32,157 nt of DNA, taken from sequence record SRR20825019_2481, one strand, 5' to 3'. A model generated the notes under the pieces. It worked only from the letters and a program-made list of their open reading frames with translations. It was not told the DNA's origin and made no database searches. The position numbers were made by a program, and so were the translations under genes. Shown here piece by piece: positions 1 to 5,434 of this stretch (positions within the stretch are counted from its first letter, which is position 1; each line of letters begins with the position of its first letter).

Positions 1-27
1 GTGCTGGCGGGGATCGAAACCACCTAA
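1..27 (+). CDS. Probable 3' end of a gene entering from outside the window (…VLAGIETT*)
   Basis: Frame 1 is open from base 1 to TAA at 25-27 with GC-rich, host-like codons. Too short to identify. Confidence 0.3.
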   Translation: MLAGIETT

Positions 28-36
28 TGCTGTTTT

Positions 37-69
37 AACCGCTGATGGGCGCTAATGAACACTGATCAA
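37..69. repeat. Three imperfect tandem 10-mers (CGCTGATGGG/CGCTAATGAA/CACTGATCAA)
   Basis: Seen directly at 40-49, 50-59 and 60-69, preceded by AAC. Confidence 0.5.
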
Positions 70-194
70 ATGCCCACTTAGTAAGACTTTTACCAAGGTG
101 GATGAGCACATCCCCCGCGCCCCTCATGACGAGGCATATGATTGGTGGCATGTATTTCAGTGGGTTCGAGTGCTCTTCGGCTTCATCTACCTCC

Positions 195-1115
195 CTAGCT
201 CGAATCTAGTTTGTCTAAAATGAAGAGGAACTTCCTACCGCTAGCTGGTCTAGTCTCCTCGACTGCCAATCTAACTGTTACTTTCTCAGCCAGTGGATTA
301 GCCGCAGTGCCCAAAAAAACATCTGCCAGACATTCATTACAATCACCTCCATTAATGATGAAACTTGAATCCTGAAAAACCGTATTCAGCGAATCACCCA
401 AATGGTTGATTTGCATAAATTCTGGCAATAGATTTTCCGAAAAATTACAAAACGATTTCGGCCAGCTTACAATTCTCGCTGTGGACTTTGATGTCCACTC
501 TGCGGCACCAATTATGATATCCTGAATCGCTGGTTTAAATCGAAAACCGTTAGGATCATATTTAGGCAAAATACCGAAACGATTAACGATTACCTCTCGT
601 GAAACAGCAAAGTGACTTTGCATTTCCACCAGTCGATCGATATTCAATCTATCATTCGTATCAAAACATAATCTGGAAAATCCATCATCCGGAATAAGCA
701 AAAGCGGCGATAATGCATCTGCTTCTCTTTCTTTTTTCTTCTCTATGTCGCCCTTTGAAACCTTAACTTTTGACCGCCTTCCGCTTGAGGACTCTTCGGG
801 ACAACGCAGCTGTAAAACATGACTTAATTCATGCGCAATTGTGAATCGAACACGTGGTGGCAGAGCACATATTCTGTTCTCTGCCTGGTAGATGTCCGCT
901 TCATATCCACTCGAAAGGCTGTCTACCACCACAAGCCATTTGTCATCCTTGGATTTAGGTTCAGCCACCATTCCCTCATAGAGTAATGGTTGAGCTCGAA
1001 ATTCCACATCCAGTAAGTCGACTAGCCTCTGAACCGAAACGAAGTTCTCAGTATCCGCGGCCGCGTTTGCTGCGTTACAACACATTCCAGCTAGGCGTTC
1101 GATATATGAGCTCAT
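195..1115 (-). CDS. ImmA/IrrE (COG2856, DUF955) family Zn metallo-endopeptidase, IrrE/CapP-like architecture (peptidase + HTH + C-terminal alpha/beta domain)
   Basis: RVRFTIAHELSH (HExxH), downstream EREAD..SPLLLIP (third-ligand Glu motif), HTH-like LVEMQSHFAVSREVIVNR. ATG at 1115 chosen; alternative GTG at 1169 overlaps the upstream gene. Confidence 0.88.
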   Translation of the reverse strand: MSSYIERLAGMCCNAANAAADTENFVSVQRLVDLLDVEFRAQPLLYEGMVAEPKSKDDKWLVVVDSLSSGYEADIYQAENRICALPPRVRFTIAHELSHVLQLRCPEESSSGRRSKVKVSKGDIEKKKEREADALSPLLLIPDDGFSRLCFDTNDRLNIDRLVEMQSHFAVSREVIVNRFGILPKYDPNGFRFKPAIQDIIIGAAEWTSKSTARIVSWPKSFCNFSENLLPEFMQINHLGDSLNTVFQDSSFIINGGDCNECLADVFLGTAANPLAEKVTVRLAVEETRPASGRKFLFILDKLDSS

Positions 1116-1131
1116 TAATCGCTCGAATTCA

Positions 1132-2646
1132 TTATCCGTCGAAATCGATCTCAGATTGAGGGGACGCACCTTTGGCGATCCAATCTAGCTTCCGGATAAG
1201 AGCATCATGCCGATCACGTCCTAGAGTGGGAGTATGCTTATTTGACACCGATGTGATATCGAACTCCTGAAGGCGTCCAAGAATTTGGACACGTTCAACT
1301 CCCGACCTCCCGCTGTGCTCTTTGATAAAATCACGGAACCTCACATCAAGTTGATGTGGCTTACCACCAGCGGCTAAAGTATAGGGCTTAAATATTGCTC
1401 TGCACCGCGCTTCAAAATTACGGGCCGAAATAACAGGCACATTTTTTCGCGAATCCGGCGGCACTTTCTTCACAATTGGTGTGGCACTGCTCTGTGATTG
1501 CTGAGTAGAAGCACCTCCGCTTGTATCTTCGGGCCACAATACCAAGCTTGTAGGAACGGTTCCACAGGCTTTTTTCGTATGCGACTCTTGATCATCAAAA
1601 AATATGTGAGCACGAAATTTGCTCAGGATTGGTTTTTTGTCTTTCCCTCCTAATAGAAACATCTGGTCAACTCGAACCCCCCAACTGCGAAGAGTATTCA
1701 TAAGACGCTCCTCAACGGGTGGATTCCGCGCCGTGACCAACGCGATTTCTATAGGTGAGAAGAGTATTCTGACACGAGTAGCAATGAGTGCAGACTCTTC
1801 GGAACTAAATCCAGCAGTTTCAAGACGACCCTCATCTGCAGCGAGAAATAGGGCTTTTTCAGGTGGGCCTGCCTTAATCACCCGTTCGACCATGCGGACA
1901 TCTAGTTTCAATGCGATGGCAAGAGATCTAGCATCTGGAACTTCATTCTCTGGGAACATCACCCTCCGAGCTCTTTCCATATCTGCTTTTATCGCACTTA
2001 GTTTTTGCAATACAGGTAAGAGGGGACCCGGAGGTAGTGGAATCGCAGCCTTGGATACTTCATGATCACGATAGGGTTTCATGTCCGGCTTATTCGCCTG
2101 ATATACCAGTTCGGCTTCAAGACCCGCCAATACCCCATCGAAATCAAACGCAATCCGTAATTGCTCCGGCTCAACATTTACTTTCTCTGGCGGGGCATAT
2201 AGCAATCCAGCTCCGATTCCACACGCCATTGCGCGTTGCACTTCACTTCGCTCATTGGACAGAAAGAGCCCAACATTTAGCGCATTGCAATATTGAGCGA
2301 TAGGTTCCCCTCCAGTGAATGCGGCTCGAATATTTTCGAAACCGTAATGGGCTAAAGATCGCATCACCCGACTACCTGCTTCCGGCTCATTCTTAGACAT
2401 TACGACGATCTCGAATGGTTTTTTTTCACCATTCAGCCTCATCATGACCTCAGCTAAAGGAAAGGCCGTGCCTTTGGAAAACGGAACATTCTCCCTTTTA
2501 ACTTGGTGATCCACATACTCCGAAAGAGGGTCCTTACGGTAAACCTCATCACTTTCCTTTGTATCAAATAGACTACTGGAGGATAGCCCCAATACCAGTG
2601 AGGCAGGGATTTTGTTCGATGGAACTGATTGGGGTAAGTTTGCCAT
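1132..2646 (-). CDS. 5'-nucleotidase (PF06189/NT5C1-type HAD family) with ~75-aa internal insertion and ~130-aa C-terminal extension
   Basis: Family motifs LVLGLSSSSLFD, G(T)AFPL, EIVVMSKN, RAAFTGG, LFLS, LRIAFDFDGVL (DxD), PLPPGP, IALVTAR, TLRSWG, FLLGG.DK, HIFFDDQ. Confidence 0.9.
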   Translation of the reverse strand: MANLPQSVPSNKIPASLVLGLSSSSLFDTKESDEVYRKDPLSEYVDHQVKRENVPFSKGTAFPLAEVMMRLNGEKKPFEIVVMSKNEPEAGSRVMRSLAHYGFENIRAAFTGGEPIAQYCNALNVGLFLSNERSEVQRAMACGIGAGLLYAPPEKVNVEPEQLRIAFDFDGVLAGLEAELVYQANKPDMKPYRDHEVSKAAIPLPPGPLLPVLQKLSAIKADMERARRVMFPENEVPDARSLAIALKLDVRMVERVIKAGPPEKALFLAADEGRLETAGFSSEESALIATRVRILFSPIEIALVTARNPPVEERLMNTLRSWGVRVDQMFLLGGKDKKPILSKFRAHIFFDDQESHTKKACGTVPTSLVLWPEDTSGGASTQQSQSSATPIVKKVPPDSRKNVPVISARNFEARCRAIFKPYTLAAGGKPHQLDVRFRDFIKEHSGRSGVERVQILGRLQEFDITSVSNKHTPTLGRDRHDALIRKLDWIAKGASPQSEIDFDG

Positions 2647-2667
2647 TCTAAAATAAGCTAAACACCC

Positions 2668-2695
2668 TATATAATTAAACCTAATAGGCAGTCAA
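2668..2695 (-). promoter_or_regulatory. Putative sigma70 promoter for the islet operon
   Basis: Minus strand reads TTGACT-N16-TATATA, with the -10 ending 21 nt before the ATG at 2646. Confidence 0.4.
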
Positions 2696-3063
2696 GTGAC
2701 ACCTCTCGAATATTTGGTAAATATTTCAGCATGCGGGGGTGAATTTCACCGACATTAGCTATATTATATTGTTAATAAAGGTGTTACGTGATTATTAGAA
2801 TTAACACTCCCTCTGGAATTTATCGGGCTTGCTCAACACAAAGCGGACAGTCTTGAACCGGTGATTATGCCAATCTCGATCAGCTAACTCAATTGGCGAT
2901 TATGCGATCGCGAATATTCTTACTTTCGCGAACAGCAAAAGATCGCCAGCCAGGGCACCTGAACACCACGTCGACCCGATGACAAACTCGGCAAAGATCC
3001 TACCTTTCGATAGAAAATTCAATGCGCCCAGAAAACATCGAACATTGCTATATGAATATCCCC

Positions 3064-3834
3064 TCAAATACACCGCCCACCATCCACATCGAGGCTCACG
3101 CCGGTAATGAATTCTGAAGCGGGATCGGCGAGAAAGACCGCCGCATTGGCGACATCCTTGGGTTCGCAGAGTCGGCCGAGGGGAATCGTGGAGAGAAACT
3201 TTTTCCGATTCTCCGGGGTGTCATCGCTGCCCATGAAAGTCGTGAGCAAAGGCGTGTCGGCAATGGCGGGGTTGATTGAATTGGCGCGGATTTTATCCGG
3301 GGCCAGTTCCACCGCGAGCGACTTGGTGAGCAGGGTGACCGCGCCTTTCGATCCGTTATACCACGACAGACCGGGACGCGGACGCACCGCCGCGGTGGAG
3401 CCAATATTGATAAAGCAGCCACTGCCCTGCTGACGAAACACGGGCACGCAATGCTGGGCGGACAGGTAGATGCTTTTCACGTTCACCTGATAGAGCCGGT
3501 CGAAGAACGCTTCATCGACTTCCAACATCGGCCGATTGTCGTGACTCATCCCGGCGTTGTTCACCATCACATCAATTCGCCCGAATCGATTCAGCGCGGT
3601 CTCCACCATGGCACCCATCGCCACGGAATTCGCGACATCCACTTCGCAGGCAATCGCCTCATGGCCAGCCTCGACTAACGCGGCCGCAACGGCTTCCGCC
3701 TTGGATAGATTTAAATCCGCCACCACCAACTTCGCACCGTGTTCGGCATATTGCTGGCTGATACATTCGCCAAAGCCGGAGGCCGCGCCGGTCACAATCG
3801 CCACCAATCCTTCCAATCGTCGTGGGGTAGTCAT
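3064..3834 (-). CDS. Classical SDR family oxidoreductase (FabG/glucose 1-dehydrogenase-like)
   Basis: TGAASGFG (TGxxxGxG), NNAG, YNGSK (YxxxK), ITG..L.VDGG; 256 aa. Confidence 0.95.
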   Translation of the reverse strand: MTTPRRLEGLVAIVTGAASGFGECISQQYAEHGAKLVVADLNLSKAEAVAAALVEAGHEAIACEVDVANSVAMGAMVETALNRFGRIDVMVNNAGMSHDNRPMLEVDEAFFDRLYQVNVKSIYLSAQHCVPVFRQQGSGCFINIGSTAAVRPRPGLSWYNGSKGAVTLLTKSLAVELAPDKIRANSINPAIADTPLLTTFMGSDDTPENRKKFLSTIPLGRLCEPKDVANAAVFLADPASEFITGVSLDVDGGRCI

Positions 3835-3884
3835 GAGCTATGGAATAGCTTACCCAACACGCACCGGACAATCACCAACTTGGC

Positions 3885-3912
3885 TTGCGAGCCGCAGACG
3901 CGAGACTACGAT
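3885..3912 (+). promoter_or_regulatory. Putative sigma70-like promoter for the ABC-F gene (possibly leaderless transcript)
   Basis: TTGCGA-N16-TACGAT; the ATG at 3920 lies 7 nt after the -10 and no Shine-Dalgarno is present. Confidence 0.3.
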
Positions 3913-3919
3913 CACTGGC

Positions 3920-5434
3920 ATGGCCTCCGCCCAACTGGTATTTCAATCCGTCGAGTTTGCCCATCCCGGCATGACTCAGCCGCTGTTCACCGATTTGACG
4001 GTGCAGTTTCCGTCGGGCTGGACCGGGATCGTCGGTCCGAACGGCGCGGGCAAAACGACTTTACTGAAAGTCGCTACGGGCGAACTGGCTGCGCAAAGCG
4101 GTTCGGTGCACCGCCAGGGATTGTCGCTCTACGTCGCGCAGCGCACGGATGATCCACCGGAGTTCTTTGAGGATTTCATCTGGGCTCCCGATGCCACCGT
4201 GCTCAAAGCACGTCTGCACGTGAGCGAAGATTGGCCGGAGCGCTGGTCGACCCTGAGTCACGGCGAACGCAAACGCGCCCAGATCGCCGTGGCGCTGTGG
4301 CGCGAGCCGTCGGTTCTCGCGCTCGACGAACCGAGTAATCACATCGACGCCGATGCCCGTCGCCTGCTGCAACTCGCATTGCAGGAATTTAACGGCATCG
4401 GCCTGCTCGTCAGCCACGACCGTTCGCTCCTTGATGAACTCTGCTCGCAATGCCTCCTGATTGATCCGCCGAACGCCGTGTTGCGTCCGGGTGGAGTGAC
4501 GGCCGCGATGGAACAACAGGATAACGACGAGAGATCCGTCCGCCATGCCAACGAAGCACTCCGTGGCACGGAAAATCGTCTCAAGGCCGAAGCCCAACGG
4601 CGGCGGGTGATCGCCGAACAAAAGGCTTCCGCCGCCCGCGGCTCGAAGCAGAAGAAGATCCCGATCCACGACCACGATGGCCGCGCCATGCGCAACCTCG
4701 CCAAGCTCACAGGCAAGGACGCCTATTCCGGGAAAATGGTCGCGCTCATGAATCAGCGCGCCGGCAAAGTCGCCGCCCAACGCGCGGAGATCAGTGTAAA
4801 GAAACGTTACGAAACCGGCATCTGGGTGGATGGTGCTTCCTTCATTCCACGCGATTTCCTCCTGCGGTTGCCTGCCGACAGCCTGCCGCTCGGCGGCGAA
4901 CGTCAGTTGCACTTTCCCGATCTCGCCATCGGCGGCACCAGTCGAATCGCGCTAACCGGGGCCAACGGTCTCGGGAAGAGCACGTTGATCCGACACCTAC
5001 TTAACCACCTCCAATTGCCCGATGAAAAACTCGTCTCCGTGCCGCAGGAAATCTCCGCCGAAGATTCCCGCGCCTTGCTCGAATCGATCAAACTCCTGCC
5101 CAACGACGAACGCGGTCGGGTGATGACCACGATCAGTCGACTGGGATCGCGTCCGGGCCGATTATTGGAAAGCGCCCTTCCCAGCCCCGGCGAAGTGCGC
5201 AAGCTACTTCTCGCCCTCGGCATCGTGCGCGGCCCGCATCTCATCGTGATGGACGAGCCCACCAACCACATGGATCTCCCCGGCATTCTCTGCCTCGAAC
5301 AGGCGCTCGCCGACTGCCCCTGCGCGATGCTGCTGGTAAGTCACGACGAAGACTTCCTCGCTAAAATCACCGAAACGCATTGGCACCTCGAATCGGCCGA
5401 TTCCGGCGACACGCAGCTACTGATCGAAGTGTAA
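3920..5434 (+). CDS. ABC-F family ATP-binding protein (two NBDs, no TM domain)
   Basis: GPNGAGKTT, LSHGE, LALDEPSNH, VSHD; second NBD GANGLGKST, PSPGE, IVMDEPTNH, VSHD; long helical linker. Start moved to ATG 3920 because the upstream in-frame part is antisense to the SDR gene. Confidence 0.9.
   Translation: MASAQLVFQSVEFAHPGMTQPLFTDLTVQFPSGWTGIVGPNGAGKTTLLKVATGELAAQSGSVHRQGLSLYVAQRTDDPPEFFEDFIWAPDATVLKARLHVSEDWPERWSTLSHGERKRAQIAVALWREPSVLALDEPSNHIDADARRLLQLALQEFNGIGLLVSHDRSLLDELCSQCLLIDPPNAVLRPGGVTAAMEQQDNDERSVRHANEALRGTENRLKAEAQRRRVIAEQKASAARGSKQKKIPIHDHDGRAMRNLAKLTGKDAYSGKMVALMNQRAGKVAAQRAEISVKKRYETGIWVDGASFIPRDFLLRLPADSLPLGGERQLHFPDLAIGGTSRIALTGANGLGKSTLIRHLLNHLQLPDEKLVSVPQEISAEDSRALLESIKLLPNDERGRVMTTISRLGSRPGRLLESALPSPGEVRKLLLALGIVRGPHLIVMDEPTNHMDLPGILCLEQALADCPCAMLLVSHDEDFLAKITETHWHLESADSGDTQLLIEV

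Follow-up and report, generated by a model that had tools for sequence, protein, structure and literature searches.

Two co-oriented genes on the minus strand, at positions 195..2646 of a 32,157-nt stretch of DNA from sequence record SRR20825019_2481 (hereafter the window, by which the whole of this stretch is meant), encode a long-form HAD 5′-nucleotidase and a zinc metallopeptidase of the IrrE/CapP type. The comparisons described here reveal that the pair is real, conserved and rare, but not a categorically new system, as its kinds are already known: the nucleotidase family is catalogued as a candidate defence system (PDC-S08), and an ImmA-type protease combined with a variable toxin is the composition of the RosmerTA modules. 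The first-pass annotation of this stretch had proposed a candidate new module and, to that extent, the pair is less new than proposed; its statement that no named system has this pairing stands, as the literature searches turned up no paper in which an M78/COG2856 protease is paired with a nucleotidase. The reading that we favour, with a probability of about 0.5, is that the two-gene operon was acquired horizontally and that the protease controls the nucleotidase, the two constituting a gated nucleotide-depletion module of the toxin–antitoxin or abortive-infection type.

The nucleotidase gene (1132..2646, 504 aa) is followed by the peptidase gene (195..1115, 306 aa), with 16 nt between the nucleotidase stop codon (TAA, ending at 1132) and the peptidase ATG (1115). 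The list of open reading frames (ORFs) gives the peptidase as 195..1169 (−), 324 aa, from a GTG start; however, because 13 peptidase homologues of 258–314 aa align starting at the internal ATG at 1115, the 306-aa form is taken here as the gene. With this start, the earlier description of two co-oriented genes 16 nt apart is borne out.

Both family assignments made at first pass were also right. The nucleotidase matches Pfam PF06189 with E = 7.6e-88 (294.6 bits, against a cut-off of 28.2), the match being split in two by an insert, and PADLOC, which had been proposed as a check, returned its PDC-S08 model (PDLC04900) with E = 2.8e-93. Across 20 aligned PF06189 proteins (homologues P0002 and P0008 were left out of this alignment) D168, D170, T305-A306-R307, K337 and D352 show no variation, and D351 is kept in at least 90% of them, confirming that HAD motifs I–IV, described earlier as the DxD, TAR, K and DD motifs, are intact. 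The peptidase matches Pfam PF06114 (E = 1.1e-6), the PADLOC models for capP (E = 1.2e-12) and for RmrA of RosmerTA (best E = 3.2e-9), and the PDB profile of CapP 7t5t (E = 3.8e-6). Its HExxH zinc site (819..833, minus strand; H95, E96, L, S and H99 when numbered from the ATG) aligns with the CapP motif RMRFTQAHELGH, and H95, E96, H99 and the downstream third ligand, E129, are invariant in 14/14 peptidases, so the catalytic residues named in the first-pass annotation are present here too.

The pairing itself recurs in other genomes. Among 16 insert-bearing nucleotidase homologues (P0001–P0015 and P0018, with P0002 and P0008 assigned from 72–78% identity and unaligned), ten have a peptidase homologue whose longest contig is of identical size (34469, 8316, 8983, 16263, 29264, 6206, 23946, 78105, 21887 and 4290 nt). 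All six of the insert-bearing homologues on contigs longer than 10 kb (6/6) have such a match, and the six without one sit on contigs of 8.4 kb or less. Two records of an Opitutaceae metagenome-assembled genome (MAG) give the nucleotidase and the peptidase consecutive accession numbers (MEO7414015.1/16.1 and MEO7799298.1/99.1). In a mirror-tree comparison across 11 loci, pairwise identity among the nucleotidases correlated with that among the peptidases at r = 0.90, a value as high being obtained in 0/5000 permutations. Hence the pair is conserved and co-inherited, and the earlier proposal comes through the first of its own refutation tests, which concerned conservation of the pair in other genomes. 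The same evidence bears on a chance adjacency of two unrelated genes: ten contig-level co-occurrences, consecutive accessions within one MAG and a correlation that no permutation equalled make such an explanation hardly credible.

A quick IQ-TREE reconstruction of 42 proteins (with P0002, P0008 and P0018 left out) placed the 14 insert-bearing rows in one clade with 100% SH-aLRT support. This clade is nested within the forms that carry a C-terminal module (96%), with the insert-less P0016 and P0017 as its sisters; the tree alignment contained the insert and module columns, which possibly aided the grouping. Our best explanation includes an order of events in which the nucleotidase gained the C-terminal module first and the acidic cap insert later. 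Seven insert-less, module-bearing clusters, on contigs of up to 65 kb, were compared with the same peptidase lists (14 rows, and the best 120 of 197 matches), and none matches the contig size of any listed peptidase. Judged by equal contig sizes, the peptidase appears together with the cap insert and not with the C-terminal module.

To judge from the sequences, the nucleotidase is a rare derived form of its family, as ordinary PF06189 members are about 300 aa long and lack the cap insert, the linker and the C-terminal module. Its AlphaFold2 (AF2) model has a mean pLDDT of 84.8. The catalytic HAD core (residues 160–370; 1537..2169, minus strand) carries D168/D170, T305, K337 and D351/D352 in invariant or near-invariant columns and gives HAD fold matches over residues 160..381. 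It is preceded by an N-terminal HAD-like pseudo-domain (residues 12–150; 2197..2613, minus strand), which is part of the PF06189 profile. The best fold match of this lobe in a wide VIA-align search is the T4 Pnkp 3′-phosphatase 5uj0_B (Z = 11.8, root-mean-square deviation (rmsd) 2.8, 120 residues aligned over 14..152), and its motif I position reads GLSSSSLFD. Because the N-terminal half is HAD-like and lacks the catalytic DxD, the PF06189 family looks like a tandem HAD duplication with one pseudo-enzyme lobe, and this lobe may be regulatory. Foldseek returned nothing for the nucleotidase model against the PDB at E ≤ 1e-3, and no relatives of the nucleotidase were found in viral contigs. The likely substrates are (deoxy)nucleoside monophosphates ((d)NMPs). 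Vertebrate NT5C1A prefers AMP and dNMPs. It belongs to the same Pfam family, PF06189 (a table in PMC5098729 lists the human enzyme there), but is a eukaryotic metabolic enzyme with neither a protease partner nor the insert or C-terminal module.

Structural comparison of the peptidase further supports its assignment. In its predicted model, confidence is low in the N-terminal half and good in the C-terminal GAF/PAS-like sensor domain (residues 198–303; 207..524, minus strand), where pLDDT is about 85–93. The top fold match among all PDB representatives is PprI with single-stranded DNA (ssDNA), 8sln_A (Z = 8.1, rmsd 6.8, 181 residues aligned over 60..303), followed by a Mycobacterium tuberculosis transcriptional regulator entry, 6cyj_A (Z = 6.6), and CapP 7t5t_A is matched with Z = 6.2 (rmsd 5.7, 188 residues aligned over 43..305). 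PAS, Cache and LOV sensor domains match the C-terminal domain at Z = 4–5.5, below PprI and CapP, and each of the nine best Foldseek rows belongs to IrrE/PprI, to CapP or to the M. tuberculosis regulator (E = 3e-3 to 1.5e-2). By these model comparisons, the peptidase has the IrrE/PprI and CapP fold, its C-terminal sensor domain included, and it therefore shares with CapP and IrrE/PprI the three-domain architecture of peptidase, helical and GAF-like domains. The zinc sites are numbered nearly identically (H95/H99/E129 here and H97/H101/E128 in CapP). An Arg seven residues ahead of the first zinc-binding His is also common to both (R88 here), and in CapP, according to the available portion of 10.64898/2026.05.16.725639, it is among the residues of the ssDNA groove. 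By analogy, the peptidase may sense ssDNA. A cysteine switch is present in many CapP proteins, though not all, whereas the family here has no conserved switch Cys: the loop 100–128 is variable and basic, and a Cys occurs there in only 1/14 peptidases, the protein of the window itself.

The peptidase family is larger than that of its partner. A profile search returned at least 197 full-length relatives of about 300–335 aa that are 28–35% identical; one lies in Termitidicoccus mucosus and another in an Armatimonadota MAG. Most of these relatives must pair with other partners, because only 26 module-bearing proteins are found in the representative library, as would be expected of a hub protease whose partners vary. 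No match to the peptidase was found in plasmids, and none to the wider-family member P0127 in plasmids or phages. At E ≤ 1e-20, the peptidase profile matched 0/401 genomes in each of the two phyla searched, a search that included no positive control. A motif-led locus search (RFT[IV]AHEL[GS]) returned 80 genome and 71 metagenome loci with distant ImmA-type genes and no true relative, the top-ranked of these 151 loci reaching at most 37% identity over residues 84–191.

Three additions distinguish the nucleotidase from the short forms. The first is a lineage-specific five-helix cap insert (residues 232–297; 1756..1953, minus strand), whose helices (239–246, 250–258, 262–269, 272–277 and 282–296) are predicted with pLDDT > 90. 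In the alignment it is present neither in the short forms nor in P0016, and it is acidic to neutral, with a median net charge of −2 over 15 sequences. The second is a disordered linker (residues 374–402; 1441..1527, minus strand; pLDDT < 50), which is poorly conserved and, across the 16 forms with the C-terminal module, varies from 29 to 36 residues; it is a candidate protease-accessible site and may be where cleavage occurs. The third is a basic C-terminal four-helix module (residues 405–495; 1162..1434, minus strand), with helices 408–425, 435–444, 449–462 and 477–492 and a median net charge of +5.5. It falls outside known families: nothing in Pfam, Atlas or the PDB matches it, and in the 18,006 ORFs from the 151 ImmA-type loci the lowest E was 0.1.

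The idea that the cap insert is an XRE-type helix-turn-helix (HTH) domain, and thus a fused ImmR/CapH-like substrate, was considered and is unsupported: the insert has no Pfam or Atlas match, it is acidic, and the best E of its hidden Markov model (HMM) is 1.7. The sole PDB profile match near it is a putative regulator, 3r0a, at E = 0.29; the idea was judged without a separate fold of the insert alone.

A phmmer search with the C-terminal module returned 26 proteins at E ≤ 1e-3 among 1.84 billion representatives. They include one insert-bearing long-form nucleotidase (P0007), six insert-less nucleotidases of 437–459 aa and three nucleotidase fragments, together with 15 small stand-alone proteins of 106–234 aa and one protein of 630 aa. 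In 12/15 of the small proteins, two NPYA-type motifs stand ahead of the module. Fourteen small proteins of 150–234 aa (P0073, P0075, P0076, P0079, P0081–P0083 and P0087–P0093) have no Pfam match; most consist of two short NPYA(K/S)L-type motifs (one or two in 12/14, none in P0090 and P0091), a variable linker and the module. They could be regulators, adaptors or mimics of the module. Apart from the module, the protein of 630–641 aa (P0086 and P0094) shows nothing but a match to HD_assoc_2 that stays below threshold (E = 0.002; 18 bits, where 23.1 is the cut-off). If this protein were an HD-type dNTPase, the module would be common to two kinds of nucleotide-hydrolysing enzymes.

In the mechanism that we propose, the effector would be a cN-IA-type HAD 5′-nucleotidase stripping phosphate from (d)NMPs, with an insert in the cap over its active site. 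The CapP/IrrE-type zinc protease, with its GAF/PAS-like sensor domain, would bind the nucleotidase and switch its activity, either by cleaving or by sequestering it, with the cap insert or the disordered linker as the site of action, upon an infection or DNA-damage signal (ssDNA, by analogy with CapP and PprI). The unleashed nucleotidase would then drain the nucleotide pools, and phage (and host) DNA synthesis would stop. A protease-controlled effector pair fits best because an intact phosphatase of a defence-candidate family stands beside a CapP/IrrE-type protease, no repressor gene is visible, and the insert appears to have been gained with the protease; of the possible versions, we put activation by cleavage first. 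What we infer from these observations is the defence role, along with the substrates, the trigger and which way the control runs. A more specific form supposes that an ssDNA-sensing CapP/IrrE-type protease has been re-targeted from a repressor to a zymogen-like nucleotidase, the acidic insert being a docking or cleavage lid gained with the protease, whose removal upon infection opens the active site and leads to depletion of (d)NMPs. In all its details this form is rather unlikely; if true, bacterial immunity would have its first example of a nucleotide-depletion effector activated by a protease, and it would give IrrE/CapP sensors a direct post-translational output.

Binding of the two proteins was addressed by complex prediction. 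The full-length chains gave a score of 0.48 (0.46, 0.48 and 0.48 in the three runs), compared with 0.00 for the best of three controls; at least 44% of the contacts recur between runs, with a partner pLDDT of 63 or more. The mark that this score reaches is met by 51/78 solved complexes and by 2/108 mismatched pairs; among passes at 0.60 or less, however, are only 5 of these 78 solved complexes and all four of the passing mismatches (of 180). The prediction therefore lends weak support to binding of the nucleotidase and the peptidase.

The prediction, and the co-inheritance of the two genes, would also fit a RosmerTA-like toxin–antitoxin pair of the opposite sign, in which the nucleotidase is constitutively toxic, the peptidase acts as antitoxin by binding or continuous cleavage, and the antitoxin disappears upon infection or when the element is lost. 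RosmerTA is likewise a two-gene module of a variable toxin and an M78/ImmA-type protease, with the toxin first and tight spacing. According to the available text of PMC10440598, ImmA-type proteases serve there as a hub antitoxin with diverse toxins, and 58% of the pairs are toxin-first, the order found here with a 16-nt gap; the nucleotidase is absent from the toxin types that this text names. The matches of the PADLOC RmrA models to the peptidase domain point the same way, but they cover residues 85–197 against model positions 186–286 of 380, with HExxH at residue 95 as in CapP. The N-terminal HTH that is usual in RmrA, mostly an HTH–peptidase fusion of about 370–400 aa, is missing from the peptidase, which has instead the C-terminal sensor-domain architecture of the signal-activated IrrE and CapP. 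Furthermore, short-form PF06189 genes occur without an antitoxin partner, a point against the core enzyme being constitutively toxic. We regard this opposite-sign arrangement as improbable, if worth retaining.

CapP with CapH and, in Deinococcus, IrrE/PprI with DdrO each have an HTH substrate gene, and none is present in the visible locus here: no ORF in 1–3107, including the 417 nt upstream of the pair and the 194 nt downstream, matches an HTH. CapP also regulates CBASS, among other immune operons, whereas no CBASS genes are found here and the peptidase lies downstream of an enzyme effector with which it is co-inherited. The ImmA/ImmR arrangement of mobile elements, with an adjacent ImmR and an integrase or mobile backbone, is not seen either, as the window contains no repressor, integrase or phage genes. 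It could still be that the peptidase is only a CapP-like transcriptional switch: DNA damage would turn the operon on through cleavage of an HTH repressor encoded elsewhere (for example, past the contig end), and the protease would leave the nucleotidase, a PDC-S08-type effector, untouched. The available portion of 10.64898/2026.05.16.725639 describes CapP with CapH and IrrE with DdrO as transcriptional switches for many immune operons, and the contig stops 194 nt past the peptidase gene, so that a further gene downstream is possible. However, the two flanking stretches show no HTH ORF, a peptidase whose gene follows that of the effector in one operon would have to act before it could itself be induced, and a pure transcription switch leaves unexplained that, among the listed peptidases, the peptidase is seen only with insert-bearing nucleotidases. 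Such a switch is therefore an unlikely explanation.

For the nucleotidase, the link to defence comes through its family. The PDC systems are 145 predicted candidates that, in the accessible part of preprint 10.1101/2024.01.29.577857, are described as embedded in BREX, DISARM or type I restriction–modification (RM) loci; PDC-S08 is not named in the main text of that preprint. The only paper found to name it (PMC10855318) reports, in its available part, an even split of PDC-S08 between phage-resistant and phage-susceptible strains of Pseudomonas aeruginosa. PDC-S08 and the nucleotidase share the two-lobed HAD enzyme with intact catalytic motifs, and P0071, a relative that carries the C-terminal module only, matches the PDC-S08 model with E = 4.5e-116. 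PDC-S08 is, however, a single gene of about 300 aa, as opposed to the 504 aa found here with cap insert, linker and C-terminal module and with an obligate-looking protease partner, and the embedding in or near BREX, DISARM or type I RM is not seen in the visible 29 kb to the right of the pair, where no RM, BREX or DISARM genes are found. Short-form PF06189 genes occur on 44 plasmid records. On the Escherichia coli conjugative plasmid NZ_CP010123.1 such a gene adjoins a DEAD/DEAH helicase and an IS3 element, and on the Pseudomonas putida conjugative plasmid pKF715A another adjoins an integrase, a DUF262 protein and a VWA-PP2C phosphatase-kinase cassette; both contexts are island-like and defence-like.

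The proposed output, nucleotide depletion that halts phage replication, is that of the Chp CARF-HAD phosphatase and of PUA-Cal-HAD. The dCTP deaminases and dGTPases are further anti-phage effectors that deplete nucleotides. In the sources as far as they were available, these nucleotide-pool effectors are switched by cyclic oligoadenylate, m6-dAMP or other cues and not by a protease; for Chp, the accessible text of PMC12715507 provides a precedent for a HAD phosphatase as an anti-phage effector.

The two genes lie in a stretch of low GC content. Across the six 500-nt bins of 1–3000 the GC fraction is 0.43–0.48, and across all 58 bins of 3001–32000 it is 0.51–0.64, with a rise from 0.43 in 2501–3000 to 0.56 from 3001. 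The stretch that holds the pair looks foreign. Its visible border is the right edge, at about 2900–3060, within or next to the low-GC upstream intergenic region of 417 nt (2647..3063, minus strand), the presumed promoter region, which contains no ORF with a Pfam match. Shuffled sequence contains promoter- and terminator-like sites at least as often. Because the assembled contig (32,184 nt) stops at base 1 of the window, the left side of the low-GC stretch lies outside the contig. The earlier description of an islet of about 3 kb is right about the low GC and gives a minimum for the size, and its statement that the pair are the only coding sequences holds for the visible part: the small ORFs in 1–223 and 2893–3107 have no Pfam match at E ≤ 0.01, and no further plausible gene was found on the visible islet.

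The other 29 kb or so of the window consists of ordinary chromosomal genes (SDR, ABC-F ATPase, ECF sigma factor, aminotransferase, sulfatase, GxGYxYP hydrolase and RND efflux pump). A flank of this length without defence genes favours a role outside immunity, in which the pair would serve in DNA-damage or nucleotide-pool housekeeping, with a damage-sensing protease adjusting (d)NMP turnover, or as a plasmid or island addiction module. The cN-IA-type enzymes have metabolic roles in eukaryotes. IrrE/PprI, moreover, is a DNA-damage regulator rather than a phage sensor in the accessible part of 10.64898/2026.05.16.725639. Set against these points are the low-GC, foreign-looking stretch, the patchy and rare distribution of the family, the embedding of the PF06189/PDC-S08 family in defence loci and the plasmid or island contexts of the two short forms, and we consider a non-immune role distinctly unlikely.

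Several points weigh against control of the nucleotidase by the protease in a defence module. All the characterised IrrE, CapP and ImmA proteases cleave HTH repressors and not enzymes, as far as the available parts of 10.64898/2026.05.16.725639 and PMC10440598 go. PDC-S08, to which the nucleotidase is assigned by its sequence match, is itself a predicted defence candidate, and no defence genes occur over the 29 kb on the right, the left flank lying beyond the contig. The link between insert and peptidase consists of coincident contig sizes, drawn from the best 120 of 197 peptidase matches, and the family is rare, with nearly all of its known members coming from metagenomes. The cap insert has no match in Pfam, Atlas or the PDB, and its HMM found nothing at E < 1 (best E = 1.7) in the 18,006 ORFs of the 151 ImmA-type loci. 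Finally, at the level of this complex score more passes are false than true, except for a pairing that was already likely, and 7/44 blindly drawn neighbour pairs also pass the mark.

At the end of the contig, bases 1–30 of the window form a repeated 30-nt sequence that is common to other contigs: in two sequencing runs (X1 and X2), other short contigs carry the same bases and then diverge into similar but different sequence. The minus strand at window positions 1–75 resembles, by eye, a degenerate tRNA T-arm and acceptor 3′ end, and this tRNA-like sequence could mark an integration site. No tRNA or Rfam family was found in the window, including in a permissive scan of 1–400; no second copy of the 1–30 repeat was found at the right edge of the islet, nor were there informative repeats; and the contigs of four sequencing runs showed no junction that skips the islet. 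Beyond the islet, the ORF of the ABC-F-type ATPase (3557–5434, plus strand), listed with a TTG start, overlaps the convergent SDR gene (3064–3834) by about 280 nt; because its first matched ABC domain begins near residue 144–152, the true start is probably further downstream.

Taken as a whole, the pair is probably a variant of protease-controlled bacterial immunity, in a small module of two genes and 2.5 kb. Its C-terminal module is a new mobile basic domain that is found in other proteins too. If the coupling between protease and nucleotidase is real, the PDC-S08 nucleotidase family gains a built-in regulatory handle, and the widespread DNA-damage-sensing proteases of the IrrE, CapP and ImmA type can act directly on an effector enzyme, beyond the repressors.

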